From positions 1-64,000 of IMG/VR virus record IMGVR_UViG_3300031998_000028: a DNA stretch of 64,000 nt. One strand, written 5' to 3'. The notes under the pieces are model-generated. The model saw only the letters and a list, made by a program, of their open reading frames with translations, was not told the DNA's origin and searched no databases. Made by a program: the position numbers and the translations under genes. Below are positions 3,001 to 63,764 of this stretch, piece after piece. Source of the stretch: a virus. Taxonomy: Duplodnaviria > Caudoviricetes. How positions within the stretch are numbered: position 1 is the stretch's first letter; each line of letters opens with the position of its first letter.

Positions 3001-6000
3001 GCAAATTTAGATGCGTCTTAGGCCAGTTTGGTTGCTAATGCTTTTGCAAATACTTTCCAATTAGATGAAACTTTTAATAAATTAATTGATGAATATTCTA
3101 CATTTTTTCAGAAACAAAGTGAGGAATTTTTAGTATCTAGATATACTGATCTATTTGGGACCGCTCCAGAAACTAGAGATAAAGCAGAGCTAGCGCGTTC
3201 AATTGCTCAATAGGAAGCTTATGATGCCCAAGCTGGGCAAACCACCCAAAATCTTGCTAGTTTGGTAAAGGATGAAGCAGGAAGAGTTATAGTTGAGGCA
3301 TTATCTGGTTCATTTGATGGGGTAACTGAAAATCTTGGCTCTTAGCTTAGGGATGCTTATCGTAACTTAGATTCTGATTAGCAAAAAATGGTTCAACAGA
3401 TTTTAGGAGTTGAAGGTCGGCATGCATCGCAGAAGGCAATGGGCAGGTTAACTGCTCTAGGACAGGATTTAAGTAATGCAATAGATACAAATTTTATTGG
3501 CTAGCTTAGTAAGACAACTTCTTTTTCAACCAAATAGTTAGAAACTATTTCTAAAAAATTAACTGGAGCCTAGAAAAAATCACTTGCTCAAGTGGCTAAG
3601 AATTTTTCTTCTTATGGTAAAAAACTTTCTGATACTATTGTAACTGCTGCAACTAACAATATGCTGTCAGCAAACCCTGATTAGGCGGAGAATGATTTCA
3701 TTGATAAGCTTTCTAATCTTAGTGATAATCCAGTATTATTATTATAGGCCATTAATGACGCAGCCGCCAATGCTAGTGGAGAAGTTTAGAAATTAGCTAC
3801 TGATTTACAAGAAAAATTAGCAGATAATCCAGCATTTTCTTCATCTCAACAATTACAATTCTTCCTTACATCAGGTGAGTTTGAAAAAATAAATGAGCAA
3901 CTTGAAAAATTTATTGAAGAAAATGAGACAATTACACCAGAATATCTTAACGAGTTAGCGGCAAGTAGTGAAACTTTAAGTGCTTTAATAGACAATAATG
4001 TTGTCAGTATTGAAGGTCTTGCTAATATTTTAAATGGTTTATCAAGCGGCCGCATTGGTATTTTTGAATTAAGTGATTCATTAATTGATTTATATAATGA
4101 TTTTTATGACGTAGAAGGGGCTGCCACTAGAGCATATGCTACTATTAATAATTTTAAATTTAGTGGCGATGGTACTGAATTTCATTAGTATATTTAGGGC
4201 TTAATAGATAAATTAAAAGAATTACAAAAAACCGGCCAATACGGCGCGATGTCAAAATATTTAGCTGAGTTTTTTGATGATGTACCAAAAGGCGTTAAAG
4301 AAATTGACAAAGCTATTAAACTCTTAGATAAATTATAGAAGAATAATGGCGGAGATTTTTGGACTGATTTATTTGGTTTAAAATATAAGACTGGTAAAAA
4401 TGGTTAGAAAACTTTTGATTTCTAGAAAGTTATTGATTAGTTTTTAGCTAGTGGTAGTACTAACTTTAAAGATTATATAAAGAAAAAATTTAAAGATAAA
4501 TATGGCTTGAGCTTAAAAGATTCAATGATAGATGTTTTAATTGGAGATTTAGGCAGCCATAGAGATTTAAAAACAGAGATTGCTAATGCTTAGATTACCA
4601 ATACGATTAAAAAATACGTTGATGGTTTAGGAAAAGGTGTAAAGGTTGATAAAGATGCTATTAAGAAAAAGATTGCTCAAATAGCAAAACAATATAACTT
4701 AGATCCTACTGAGCTATTAAAGAATTTTCTTAATGAGAATGGTAAAAAGAGTGGTAAAGGTAAAGGTACTAAATGGAAATATAAAGGCGTTACTTTTACA
4801 CAAGACGACCTTGATATGTCTGGCATTGATTCAACCGTTACTTCTTTAGAAACGGCAGTTAATTCTGCTTTAAAAGATAAAGAAATAAGGGCTAAATTTA
4901 AAAAACTTGGTATTGATCTTTCTGATCCAAAAGCTATAAAAAAGATTGACATGAGCACACTTTTATAGGCTTTGGGCACGGATAAAGATGGCCATTTTGA
5001 TTTAGGTACTGCTTACGCAACATTATCTAATCTTGTCACTGAAGTTGGAGACGGCACATTAACTCCATAGCAATGGGTCGATCAACAATTAAATGGTCAA
5101 CCACTTAAACTAAAAGCTACTTTTGATTATGTTGGACAAGACGAGAACGGGAATTTTACAACTAAGCCTTTAGAAGTCACAGTCACAGCGGGAGATACTT
5201 CTAAATTAGAGGAAACACTAGCAGGTATTGGCGAATCGGTTCCCAATTTAGTTGAAGATATGGGCTTAGAAAATACTAAAGAACTATTAGACGAAATAGA
5301 AGGTGGCTTAGTAAACTTCGATAATACTACTCATACAATTAATGTAACATATACTAGTGCATCTGAAGCTGCAGGTGTTGCAACTAATCTTAAGAATACT
5401 TTAGCAGAAATAAATACAACTTCATATACAGCAAACGTTGACGTTAAAGCCAAAAAATCAGAATTAAAAATTACTGGCAAGAATGGTCAAGTAATTACAT
5501 TTACAATTTCAACCGCTGCACGTGGTGGAATTGTTGGGTCTTTCGCCAATGGTAATAATTCTATCTAGCCAGGACTCGCTTTGACAGGCGAAGAAGCTCC
5601 TGAGATTGTTTGGAACGCGGAAAAAGGCTATGCTTATTTAGCTGGGAAAAATGGACCGGAAATTAATAATTTAAAGCCGGGAGACCGTATTTTTAATGGG
5701 TAGTAGACAAAAGATATACTAAGACGTAGTGGTATTTCCTCTTTTAGTAAGGGAGGCATGATTCCTTCTTATGCGTTGCCGGTTCCTTGGGGTACAGATC
5801 CAACTGGGCCGGGTACTGGCACTAGATCTACAGAGAAAAAACGAGATTGGAAGAACGAATTGGATTGGCTTTACAATTTAGTTTAGGATATCGCTGAACA
5901 TATGCGTAAAGTAGATCTTTTTACATTAAAATATGATAAATATCTACATGGCACGGGTAGAAAGAGTAGTACTTTATATGACTATATTAAAAAATAGTTA

Positions 6001-7329
6001 GAACAATTAGAAGCGGCTCAAGACGATTATAACAGCGAATATAAAAAACGTGGAACCGAATTAGAAAAATTAAATAAGGCGGCTAACGACGATAAATTGG
6101 GTAAATATGTACAATATAACACAAAGGATAATACTGTTGAAATTGATTGGAAAAAAATTAATGAATTGGCCAAATCTGGTAGTGATAAAGATAAAAAGAA
6201 ATATGACACAATTGTAGAATATATTAATAAAATGGAAGCCGCAAAATCGAAGCGCGATGAAGCAGAAAAAGCTATGCTTGAAATTAATGAATAGGTATAT
6301 GAAATTAAAACGCAAATGCGTGATTCATATATTAGTTTAGAAAATCGAGTTTTAGATGCTGTAGAAACTAGTCGTTAGAATCAAATAGATAAATTATCAA
6401 AACTAAATGATAGTATTGATAATGTTAATAGTAATATTTTAAATTCTATTTAGAAAGAAATTGAATTATAGCGTTAGATTCGTGATAATACTAAAACTGA
6501 AAAAGAAATTACTGATATGGAAACACGATTAGCATTTTTGCGTAGAGACACTACAGGCTCTAATTAGGCTGAAATTTTACAATTAGAAAAATAGTTGCAA
6601 GAAGCTAGAGAGAGCTATAGTGATACCTTATTAGATCAATCTTTAGATAAATTGTCTGAAGTCAATGAGAATGCTAAAGAATAGCGCGAATAGTAGATTA
6701 ATTTACTACAAGAGCAATTAGATTATGATAAAGAAAATGGAAAATTATGGTCGGAAGTTACAACATTAATAAAGGGAGCATTTACCGGTGGTACTGTTAA
6801 AGATAAATCTAAATTAATAGATTTATTAAAAGGAACGGAATTGTATAACAGTTTAAGTAGCGCTTAGAGATCATAGTGGTCTCAAGAACTATTACAATAG
6901 CTAAAAGATGCTGGGGTTTATTTACTTTATCAAGCAGATCAAAAGAAAACAACAGGAAAGAACAGTACTACAACCGTACAAGGCAATAATGTAACTTTAG
7001 CTGGATAGTCTTCAAATACAACAGATACCACTAAAACAACTTCTGATACAACGCAATCAAATTCCAATCAAACAGTAACTAATCCTTTACCAGACAGCTA
7101 TCTTTCTAATAACAGTGATTTTATTTCATTACCAAATATAGAATCAGCAGCTATTAATGGTAATTAGACAAATAATGCTTATACTGATAATTCAACCTTT
7201 AATATTGAAATAAATGTCGGCTCTCTTAATAATGATTATGATGTAGATTAGCTAATTAATCGTATTAAAGAAGAGTTATATGACTCAGCCGCTTATCGTA
7301 ATGTTACTTCATTATCATTTATACGCTAA
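1..7329 (+). CDS. Tail tape measure protein (5'-partial, >2400 aa, TAG=Gln)
   Basis: Frame 1 appears open from base 1 to TAA at 7327-7329 when TAG is read through; track ORFs at 1789, 3028, 5260 and 6097 are all in this frame. TP901-like core (ELDKVMTETAVVT...MTKVASLANNANMEFETTAAFLAQ), Ala/Gly-rich hydrophobic segments, followed by a Dit-like gene. Confidence 0.9.
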
Positions 7330-7335
7330 TAGGAA

Positions 7336-62450: not shown

Positions 62451-62456
62451 AATGTA

Positions 62457-63764
62457 ATGAATAAATATTTAGTAACAACTTTATTTTTAGATAATACAAA
62501 AAGCGTACCAAAATCGGTAACGAAAACATATGATTATATAATAGAGGATTCACTCTTTAGTCAAATCGAAGTTGGCCCATCCGCTGGAAGTGACAGAACG
62601 ACAATATATTTAACCAGTTATAATATACAAAATACTGATGGCTATGATTATCGTGGCTCTAAAGTTGTTTTCTTAGCGGTTAAGCCATACAAGCCAGAAA
62701 AAGGTGACAATTTAATAGCTCTTAAACGTATTTCAAAAATTACAAATAAAGAAGAGATTGTTTGTTTAACATCACATTATAATAAAGAATTATTGCCAAT
62801 TATAAATGAGAAAAATAAAAATGGTTGGTATACATCAAAAACTAGTTTGTTAATGGGGGTTTTATTGAATGCGGTAGGTGATAATGTGACAACAAATGAT
62901 ATAACAGCAGATAAACTTAGTAGTTCCAATTGCTGTTATACTTCTAGTACAAGTGGTACTATTTCCGGTTCTTGGATTAATACAGGTACTAGTACAGGAG
63001 ACGTATTAAAATATAATAATAATTGGATAACTACAACTCCATATACTACAAACGATTGGACAGTTACTCTTGGTAATTATCCAGCTCAATCAGAGATAGA
63101 TGAAATTAAAAAGCGTCTTGATAAATTAGAAAATAAAAATAAAAAGGAGAATAAAAAAATGTTTGATAGTCTTACAAAGAACTTGAAATGCGGCCGCGCG
63201 CAGGACGTACGTATGTCAATTTATGGTCCTGCTTTTAAAGGAGAGGATGGTAGCTGGTACTCTGTTGATATTGATGGTGAAATGACTGATGTATCCGACT
63301 TACTATTTGATATAGATAGCTATTGCTATATGATGCCCGCACCTAAGAGTGCAATTGTTGAAGGAGATTTTATTCTCCATAATGGACATTGGGTAAAAGT
63401 TATTGAATATGGTAATGGTTGTGTTATGAACGCGGTGGACACTTTCAATAAGCAGTTTATTGTACCTACTGTTACAAAGTCTCCATTTGGTTTTGAGTTC
63501 TACACCAAACTCGTTCAGCTTCTTGATTTCTCTAAAATGCCAATTAGTGCAGAAAACCCATTTGGTATGCTTCCTATGATGTTCATGTTGAATAACAAGA
63601 ATGAAAAGGATATGCTTCCTATGCTGATGATGATGGGTACGCAGAATGGCGGTCTTAATTTTGATATGTCAAATCCTTTGATGATGTATCTTATGATGAA
63701 AGATGGGGATAATTCTAATCTGTTGCCCTTTTTGATGATGGGACAGATGCAAAAAAGTGAGTAA
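62457..63764 (+). CDS. Hypothetical protein with Met-rich C-terminal repeats
   Basis: 435-aa ORF with (L)PMMFM/PMLMMM repeats; probable internal start at 63159. Confidence 0.7.
   Translation: MNKYLVTTLFLDNTKSVPKSVTKTYDYIIEDSLFSQIEVGPSAGSDRTTIYLTSYNIQNTDGYDYRGSKVVFLAVKPYKPEKGDNLIALKRISKITNKEEIVCLTSHYNKELLPIINEKNKNGWYTSKTSLLMGVLLNAVGDNVTTNDITADKLSSSNCCYTSSTSGTISGSWINTGTSTGDVLKYNNNWITTTPYTTNDWTVTLGNYPAQSEIDEIKKRLDKLENKNKKENKKMFDSLTKNLKCGRAQDVRMSIYGPAFKGEDGSWYSVDIDGEMTDVSDLLFDIDSYCYMMPAPKSAIVEGDFILHNGHWVKVIEYGNGCVMNAVDTFNKQFIVPTVTKSPFGFEFYTKLVQLLDFSKMPISAENPFGMLPMMFMLNNKNEKDMLPMLMMMGTQNGGLNFDMSNPLMMYLMMKDGDNSNLLPFLMMGQMQKSE

Follow-up and report, generated by a model that had tools for sequence, protein, structure and literature searches.

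Phages are textbook avoiders of short palindromes, and the question considered here is why the genome of one of them, itself rich in A and T, should be strewn with palindromes built only of G and C. The genome is the IMG/VR virus record IMGVR_UViG_3300031998_000028 (114,915 bp, estimated to be 96% complete); its first 64 kb is referred to below as the window, and positions are those of the window unless they are given as genome positions. An original prediction, made from inspection of the window, was that the palindrome GCGGCCGC (the NotI site), together with GCGCGC and CGCGCG, forms a dispersed signal comparable to the HIP1 element of cyanobacteria. The analyses described here showed that the signal acts at the level of DNA and is specific for particular words, not a matter of mere G/C content, that it is maintained by a moderate fixation bias, and that its presence goes with the phage clade; neither the code in use, nor a methylase of the phage, nor the restriction that particular hosts impose accounts for where it is found.

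The word family and its behaviour under null models

The 16 GCGGCCGC sites that had been reported for the window are exactly those present, each at the position given for it. Dinucleotide-preserving shuffles of the window had a mean of 0.17 sites and a maximum of two, and the mononucleotide expectation, estimated beforehand as well under 0.1 site, was 0.058 at the observed GC content of 35.2%. Across the whole genome (37% GC) there are 28 GCGGCCGC sites versus 0.17 expected, and the reversed control word is absent. A longer repeat or mobile element behind the sites was ruled out, as the sequences flanking the 16 sites show no relationship to one another. The accompanying claim of over-representation of GCGCGC and CGCGCG likewise held, with 58 and 45 copies, respectively, in the window versus 1.9 expected for each; CGGCCG occurs 31 times against the same expectation, GGGCCC is absent and CCCGGG is found once. 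The corresponding genome counts, each relative to an expectation of 4.9, are 116 for GCGCGC, 81 for CGCGCG, 63 for CGGCCG, one for GGGCCC and seven for CCCGGG. The features of the window on which the description rests are listed below, with no strand assigned to any of them; L005 to L009 are related IMG/VR loci.

1-64000: G/C-only words scattered over the whole window, with 148 runs that are 7-13 nt long (~26 expected)
4046-4053: GCGGCCGC
12883-12890: GCGGCCGC, inside the 12-nt run CCCGCGGCCGCC
15136-15143: GCGGCCGC, in nrdD
17189-17196: GCGGCCGC
17686-17693: GCGGCCGC
21083-21090: GCGGCCGC, in dnaE
25685-25692: GCGGCCGC, in the primase gene; retained in L005, absent from L006
30818-30825: GCGGCCGC, in a small winged-helix gene; retained in L005, L006 and L008
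31988-31995: GCGGCCGC; retained in L005, lost in L007
34159-34166: GCGGCCGC, inside the 12-nt run CGCGCGGCCGCG; retained in L005 and L009
39892-39899: GCGGCCGC; ACGGCCGC in L005 and L009, site present in L006
43319-43326: GCGGCCGC; retained in L009
48674-48681: GCGGCCGC; retained in L009
56936-56943: GCGGCCGC, in the UvrD-like gene
61480-61487: GCGGCCGC, inside the run GGCGCGGCCGCG
63190-63197: GCGGCCGC, inside the run GCGGCCGCGCGC
28340-28349, 33554-33563 and 57471-57480: TCGCGCGCGA, the palindromic form of GCGCGCGA

The dispersed signal is not one palindrome but a small family of words: GCGGCC/GGCCGC (whose overlap gives GCGGCCGC), CGGCCG, GCGCGC/CGCGCG and GCGCGCGA, with excesses ranging from 5-fold to more than 100-fold. 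The probability that the next base is G or C climbs from 0.35 to 0.6-0.7 with the length of the run, only to collapse at 12 nt. The process remembers about six bases, since C follows GGCCG with a probability of 0.65 and further context to the left brings no increase. Within the family GCGGCCGC is a sharp peak: among the words of the form GCG-NN-CGC in the genome, NN is GC in 28 cases and no other NN occurs more than six times. The asymmetric 8-mer GCGCGCGA/TCGCGCGC, with 38 genome sites, is a second sharp word. Where seven bases of the NotI site are in place, the remaining one matches the site 65-88% of the time versus <20% by composition, and from this completion of the eighth base the scaled bias can be roughly estimated at ~3. 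Attempts to reduce the family to a single master motif failed for GCSGC alone and for (GC)n-GGCC-(GC)n, since the base after GCGCGCG is A in 51% and G in 27% of cases. Of the GCG and CGC codons, half sit in G/C-only runs of at least 6 nt.

The original prediction was to stand or fall with the persistence of the enrichment under codon- and dicodon-preserving models, and it stands, because the excess survives both. In within-gene synonymous shuffles of the genome the 27 NotI sites located in genes compare with 2.2 ± 1.2, and the 104 genic GCGCGC with 20. Under a dicodon-Markov null, which keeps the protein sequences and the codon-pair frequencies of the genome, the expectations are 5.7 ± 2.3 NotI sites (with a maximum of 14 in 200) and 28.6 GCGCGC. 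The sites had also been said to occupy different reading frames on both strands, and among the genic GCGGCCGC sites 13 encode Ala-Ala-Ala, 10 x-Gly-Arg and four x-Arg-Pro, while GCGCGC is split 39/30/35 over the three frames and the two members of each reverse-complement pair of words are equally frequent along the coding strand. A signal at the RNA level was rejected given that the words are strand-symmetric and occur in all three frames. In the 8.7 kb of DNA that is neither coding nor tRNA, the five top hexamers occur 35 times versus 2.3 expected.

The specificity of the words is most apparent where the encoded dipeptide is held fixed. Ala-Ala is spelled GCG-GCC 40 times versus 6.8 expected, GCG-GCG four times versus 7.7 and GGC-GCC 10 times versus 7.1; Ala-Arg is spelled GCG-CGC 39 times versus 5.6, and of the 36 Ala-Ala-Ala tripeptides 13 are written GCG-GCC-GCN versus 1.1 expected. 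The observed/expected (O/E) ratios of the G/C-only hexamers span from 5.2 to 0.1, and those of words with GGG or CCC lie at 0.1-1.2. As CGGCCG and GCGGCC are 3-4 fold above the isoenergetic palindromes CCGCGG, GGCGCC and GCCGGC, generic filling with G and C is not the explanation. A pure duplex-stability model was rejected on the same difference and on the contrast between GCG-GCG and GCG-GCC. Avoidance of GCWGC as the force behind GCSGC was also rejected, the depletion being merely mild (~35% among Ala-Ala pairs).

Distribution, conservation and turnover among relatives

The terminase of the phage is 44% identical to that of Geobacillus virus E3 and its DnaE 37% identical to that of SPbeta, and on the basis of these matches the phage was placed among the SPbeta-like siphoviruses of Firmicutes, where it belongs to an uncultured clade. 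A megablast search against phages gave no match. The signature is present in all 12 of the related IMG/VR loci collected via GyrA, and the ranking of hexamers is common to the complete relatives G402, G403 and G404 (rho 0.89-0.91), of which G404 uses the standard genetic code and has no recoding of TAG. By contrast, GCGCGC is absent from two cultured SPbeta-like relatives, SPBc2 and Enterococcus phage VRE9_4, whose runs of at least 8 nt number 14 versus 18.5 expected and 11 versus 9.1 expected, respectively. The TAG-recoded gut phage Phass-1 has only a ~2-fold excess. None of 401 sampled Clostridia genomes came near 244 NotI sites per Mb combined with a near-zero control word. With regard to hosts, a phage permease had only a 26% match in a Clostridia metagenome-assembled genome, and the GyrA matches among phage records, none above 34% identity, gave no information.

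Ordinary palindromes had been expected to be avoided by this phage, as is the case: in comparison with synonymous shuffles GATC occurs 57 times versus 247, ATCGAT 0 versus 23 and ACATGT 0 versus 13, and CTAG is likewise avoided. The avoided sets vary within the clade, including ACGT and CTGCAG in G404 and CATG and CTAG in G403; in four clade genomes the O/E ratios are 0.22, 0.65, 0.42 and 0.17 for GATC and 1.03, 1.03, 0.40 and 0.11 for ACGT. These differing profiles suggest that the hosts of the clade phages differ. Two other word biases were noted. TGACC, CTGACC and TGACCA are enriched on the coding strand (TGACC 86 versus 46 in synonymous shuffles), a bias unrelated to the G/C-only words. 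In G403 an apparent lineage-specific switch to GCCCGGGC was discarded, as its sites belong to a local repeat family at 46.6-60.8 kb. The same region of G403 holds 17 CCCGGG sites in a local repeated element with common flanks, such as a nearby GAACATTTGTTCG palindrome, and these CCCGGG repeats are a separate family, probably regulatory, outside the dispersed words.

Conservation at synonymous sites in relatives had been proposed as a check. In a comparison with composition-matched words, the form of test that has been used for HIP1, and pooled over relatives, the top five words are kept in 60% of cases versus 33% for other G/C-only hexamers. Retention of the top five is 84% versus 44% in L005 (p = 6e-7, although p-values of this test are inflated by overlapping words and related genomes) and 78% versus 33% in L009. 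Conservation of G or C at third codon positions is also higher inside than outside runs (0.77 versus 0.64 in L005, and 0.73 versus 0.55 in L009). Changes between the window and L005 were polarised with L009 as the outgroup. Changes from G/C to A/T (S>W) are rarer inside runs (11/63) than outside (197/585; p = 0.01), and changes from A/T to G/C (W>S) are commoner where they complete a run (12/43) than elsewhere (174/1606; p = 0.002).

What could write and read the words

The expectation that the words are a dispersed DNA-level signal maintained by selection or biased fixation, with HIP1 as the closest analogue, is borne out by the excess under the codon and dicodon nulls, by its presence in non-coding DNA and by the conservation of the words. 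We tentatively favor a lineage-bound, word-specific fixation bias toward the recognition words of a phage-clade factor, an interpretation whose chance of being right we put somewhat short of even. All-G/C words would, in this scheme, be written into double-stranded phage DNA wherever coding permits, spacers included, with run-completing W>S changes fixed more often and S>W changes inside runs fixed less often. A factor of the SPbeta-like clade that binds or processes DNA would recognize the words, selection would act on the density of words and not on single copies, and the words may amount to a HIP1-like 'self tag' that is almost absent from AT-rich host DNA. That the factor is encoded by the clade of gut or rumen phages itself (gyrase, an 83-amino-acid winged-helix protein or another factor), and that it reads a private G/C vocabulary so as to direct topology, replication or protection to phage DNA, is possible but on balance doubtful. 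The candidate readers are as follows.

35171-37510, minus strand: gyrA, identified with Pfam; putative reader
37802-39661, minus strand: gyrB, identified with Pfam; putative reader
30629-30880, minus strand: gene for an 83-amino-acid winged-helix protein (MarR-like fold); putative reader

The gyrA and gyrB genes are present in the clade and in Phass-1 and are absent from SPBc2 and VRE9_4. Gyrase of S. pneumoniae cleaves at GxxC, most often at GATC (PMC12630141), and two palindromic forms of GxxC, GGCC and GCGC, lie in the middle of CGGCCG and CGCGCG, respectively. The phage gyrase is a candidate reader because the words are centred on the core mapped for a Firmicute gyrase while the best member of that core, GATC, has been purged. 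REP/BIME-2 repeats and the strong gyrase site of phage Mu show that sites for gyrase can be dispersed or can occur in a phage (PMC6379681). The 83-amino-acid protein was found in four of four clade genomes and was not detected in SPBc2, VRE9_4 or Phass-1; its predicted fold is a minimal winged helix of MarR type (pLDDT 88.5). Since small winged-helix proteins are common phage regulators, it is to be regarded only as a lead. The comparison of gene presence covered seven genomes, a small number.

Several observations weigh against our interpretation, or against the candidate readers in particular. The hexamer O/E ratios track stacking energy (r = -0.83), and part of the ranking of words may thus be physico-chemical. 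The spacing of the runs is Poisson-like, with a coefficient of variation of the gaps (0.93-1.05) equal to that of random placement; the value for NotI sites is 0.78 (n = 28). The flanks contain no phased 10.5-bp GC signal, the power at 9.5-11.5 bp being no higher than at random positions (P = 0.06-0.77). The signal reaches only ~7 nt from the center of the word, with GC at background within 8-10 nt, and the preferred flanks, C-GSSC-G, are unlike the pneumococcal consensus g-GATC-c. Turnover is high, with 10 of 44 runs identical in L006. A second, more distant outgroup gave the same direction of change with p = 0.15 and 0.19, and the fixation bias is moderate. Functionless biased repair or replication would predict the same pattern of conservation, gain and loss. 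A host factor common to all hosts of the clade may be responsible, and both candidate readers rest on co-occurrence in a handful of genomes.

Two other explanations remain in contention, although each is unlikely. The first is a ratchet formed by a 5-methylcytosine (m5C) methylase of the host together with mismatch repair, as in the HIP model of Elhai or in very-short-patch repair of the Vsr type, by which near-misses would be converted in any DNA that replicates in the host. Cyanobacterial genomes with HIP-class words all carry the matching methylase, and those words are 75-100% GC (PMC4390886). The words favored here are classical m5C targets (GGCC, GCGC, CGCG and GCSGC cores), differences between relatives at the words are mainly CpG transitions, and gains at run-completing sites are mainly transitions. 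However, the search that had been suggested for a GGCC, GCGC or CGCG methyltransferase in the phage was negative: the C5 methylase family PF00145 had no match in six clade records (G000, G402, G403, G404, G405 and G406), no N4/N6 methylase family, PF01555 included, was found in the phage genome itself (G000), and no methylase or glycosylase turned up among ~90 phage proteins scanned with Pfam or PHROGs. The gene at 54976 that had been described as Vsr/DUF559-like also needs another identity, in that PF03852 had no match in the genome at E <= 0.1. The open reading frame (ORF) in question (54976-55386, plus strand, 136 amino acids, three in-frame TAG) matches homing-endonuclease PHROGs with E-values of 1e-21 to 1e-23, and its only Pfam match, to the RAP domain, is sub-threshold. 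If the words were the product of methyl-directed repair, as had been offered as one origin, their one-off transition neighbours should be depleted; those with T or A are not (O/E 0.73-1.44), and the range for transversions to A/T is 0.65-1.5. Further, the ranking of words is constant across phages with different avoidance profiles, and presumably different hosts, whereas methylase repertoires normally vary between strains, and the signature was found in 0 of the 401 sampled Clostridia.

The second explanation, which we consider just as unlikely as the ratchet, is that the clade's own machinery (DnaE-type polymerase, RecJ, UvrD-like helicase, ligase and Sak4-type recombinase) mutates or repairs DNA with a neutral bias that depends on context, the words being an unread by-product. 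The uniformity of the signal along the genome, its Poisson-like spacing, moderate size and high turnover, and the fact that it follows the lineage are what such a bias would produce, and the low number of words in the mobile homing-endonuclease genes would be expected if words build up with residence time. Nonetheless, a bias of this kind must tell GCGGCC from GCGGCG ten-fold and place C after GGCCG 65% of the time, and the signature is missing from SPbeta-like relatives whose DnaE, RecJ, primase and recombinase are homologous. In addition, the favored words are lost more slowly than other G/C-only words, which means that protection is needed besides creation.

It is improbable that the words are generic cooperative G/C tracts, in which stability (less breathing and less deamination of cytosine) promotes the growth of any run and NotI sites are incidental. 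The increase in the probability of a further G or C with run length and the correlation of hexamer O/E with nearest-neighbour stability are in keeping with such tracts, but the lack of enrichment of GGG- and CCC-containing words and the spread among isoenergetic palindromes are not, and the AT-rich SPBc2 and VRE9_4 have no excess of tracts. The fixed-dipeptide comparison largely refutes the idea, as GCG-GCG (O/E 0.5) is more stable than GCG-GCC (O/E 5.9). Slightly less probable still are Chi-like sites for protection or recombination, read by a host nuclease of the AddAB/RecBCD type. GCGG or GCGCG forms the core of known Chi sites in Firmicutes, and GCGCGCGA is, like a Chi site, an asymmetric 8-mer; its 38 sites, however, have no orientation bias (20 plus and 18 minus; 16 sense and 19 antisense), the equal frequency of reverse-complement pairs is contrary to expectation, T is the rarest base after GCGCG so that the lactococcal GCGCGTG is not the word, and the sampled genomes of potential hosts (Clostridia) are without the words. 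Finally, an artefact of codon, dicodon or amino-acid content or of assembly (NotI linkers) is refuted, for although the order of amino acids adds ~2.6-fold to the NotI expectation (codon-order versus synonymous shuffles), the excess outlasts both coding nulls, extends to non-coding DNA and comprises sites that are in frame in conserved genes and shared with contigs of other metagenomes.

Against this background, word-specific fixation toward sites of a clade factor can be compared with systems that are already known. The resemblance to HIP1 (GCGATCGC; PMC5861425, PMC4390886) is considerable: both are 8-bp palindromes of the form GCG-NN-CGC with an excess of two orders of magnitude, both occur in all frames and in spacers, codon use explains neither, copies are conserved above matched controls and near-variants are enriched. 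They differ in that the carrier here is a phage and not a cellular chromosome, the center is GC where that of HIP1 is AT, GATC is purged, GCGGCCGC is the peak of a family of words (GCGCGC, CGCGCG, CGGCCG, GCGCGCGA) whereas HIP1 is one octamer, the genome yielded no methyltransferase to match and the spacing is Poisson-like. Of the properties by which HIP-class words are recognized, over-representation of at least 15-fold, codon independence and conservation (Xu et al. 2018) were found here, and a methylase in the phage (Elhai 2015) and periodicity were not; a 115-kb genome is too short for the periods of 10-90 kb reported for HIP1. Regular spacing of other kinds, as might be expected of silencer insulators or Okazaki priming sites, was rejected, no regularity having been found.

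Alternative HIP-class words, namely GCsGC in Cyanothece PCC 7822, GGCGCC in Calothrix PCC 7103 and rCCGGy in Oscillatoria PCC 10802 (PMC4390886), are similarly GC-rich palindromes that replace HIP1 in particular lineages, and GCGGCCGC consists of two overlapping GCSGC. However, the cyanobacterial cases coincide with gain of the methylase for the word (PMC4390886), none of which was found here, GGCGCC has an O/E of 1.4 in the phage, and GCSGC leaves GCGCGC and CGCGCG (O/E ~5) unexplained. Gyrase targets (REP/BIME-2, the Mu site and the S. pneumoniae cores) share with the words a dispersed, GC-rich, palindromic DNA with a GxxC center, and both GyrA and GyrB are encoded here. Phage Mu depends on a gyrase site (PMC6379681). 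Yet the words are of 6-12 bp compared with elements of 35-130 bp, they lack phased 10.5-bp GC, and their immediate flanks are different. Chi and DUS/USS are also short words, dense throughout the genome and read by a DNA-processing machine, but they are asymmetric, biased in strand or orientation, and cellular, in contrast to the words described here, which have no orientation bias. A literature search found no description of such iterated words in phages.

Genomic setting and significance of the words

The phage genome also departs from the standard in its genetic code. TAG serves as a sense codon here, probably for Gln: reading through it lifts the fraction covered by open frames of 200 codons or more from 0.33 to 0.66, and over the first 10 kb from 0.07 to 1.0. 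Genome 72880-72955 encodes a tRNA whose anticodon is CTA, inside an array of 33 tRNA genes (genome 68-82 kb), and 28% of the codons read as Gln are TAG. The 372 in-frame TAG codons are dense in tail, structural and homing-endonuclease genes and scarce in replication genes. A link of the words to TAG recoding or to early versus late genes was rejected: the O/E of runs is ~2 alike in TAG-free, TAG-poor and TAG-rich genes, G404 carries the signature with the standard code, and the recoded Phass-1 shows little of it. Other genes of the window include the following.

34-12217: tape measure and tail genes
Leftward block, minus strand: replication and nucleotide genes, comprising nrdD/nrdG, dnaE, recJ, primase, dnaB, Sak4-type recombinase, GDP-heptose pathway, gyrA and gyrB
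16973-18118: gene for a 381-amino-acid clade-specific protein
Elsewhere in the window: ligase; a GIY-YIG gene beside the UvrD-like helicase; CHAP/LysM lysin

Several of these genes are unusual in their own right. The DnaE-type polymerase is divided over two ORFs on the minus strand, one at 19961-22150 with the PHP, NTPase and finger domains and one at 18118-19689 with HHH_6, and an HNH endonuclease gene (22463-23101) lies directly upstream of them; an intron, an intein or a split gene could account for this arrangement. Free-standing nuclease genes number at least six, among them that HNH gene, the GIY-YIG gene at 55915-56883, the ORF at 54976-55386 and genes at genome 68569, 73049 and 75796. 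Adjoining gyrA on the minus strand is a sugar-nucleotide pathway of the GDP-heptose type (31031-35156), made up of an SIS isomerase, a GHMP kinase, a nucleotidyltransferase-HAD phosphatase fusion and a GT8-GT2 double glycosyltransferase, and an additional GT2 gene is located at 52833-53804. Two genes for nucleobase permeases of the xanthine/uracil family were identified at genome 63837-65576 and 80615-82060, one of them immediately after a nucleoside 2-deoxyribosyltransferase-like gene; together with an NT5C-like deoxynucleotidase (genome 97824-98333) and a dNMP-kinase-like gene (window 59780-60304) they suggest phage-encoded salvage of nucleobases. The permeases and deoxyribosyltransferase were considered as a cause of the words and rejected, as they are not conserved in the clade. 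In the tRNA region a gene for a DUF2828/DUF7788/vWA protein (genome 78634-80160) adjoins an RNaseH_like (PF04308) gene (77673-78272). The two BspA-type LRR/DUF285 genes at 44443-46695 (minus strand) hold one G/C run versus ~6 expected at the genome rate. Their relatives, at most 52% identical and mainly on metagenome contigs, give no hint of the host; several of these contigs are of 110-120 kb, the size of phage genomes, and on that ground the genes probably encode fast-evolving phage surface or host-binding proteins.

This phage purges mixed palindromes yet hoards those made only of G and C, to an extent that governs half of its GCG and CGC codons. The signature is a marker of the clade that can be used in binning, and it explains an odd usage of codon pairs. 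In AT-rich DNA the enzymes NotI, BssHII and EagI usually cut rarely, but they would cleave these genomes at many sites. What HIP-class words do has been debated for three decades, and a 115-kb phage with sister phages that are free of the signature would offer a far smaller and more tractable system in which to look for a reader. If the words are indeed gyrase or 'self-tag' sites, they would amount to a new means by which a virus distinguishes its own DNA from that of its host, a 'self tag' that would be based on sequence and do the job that base modification does in T4.

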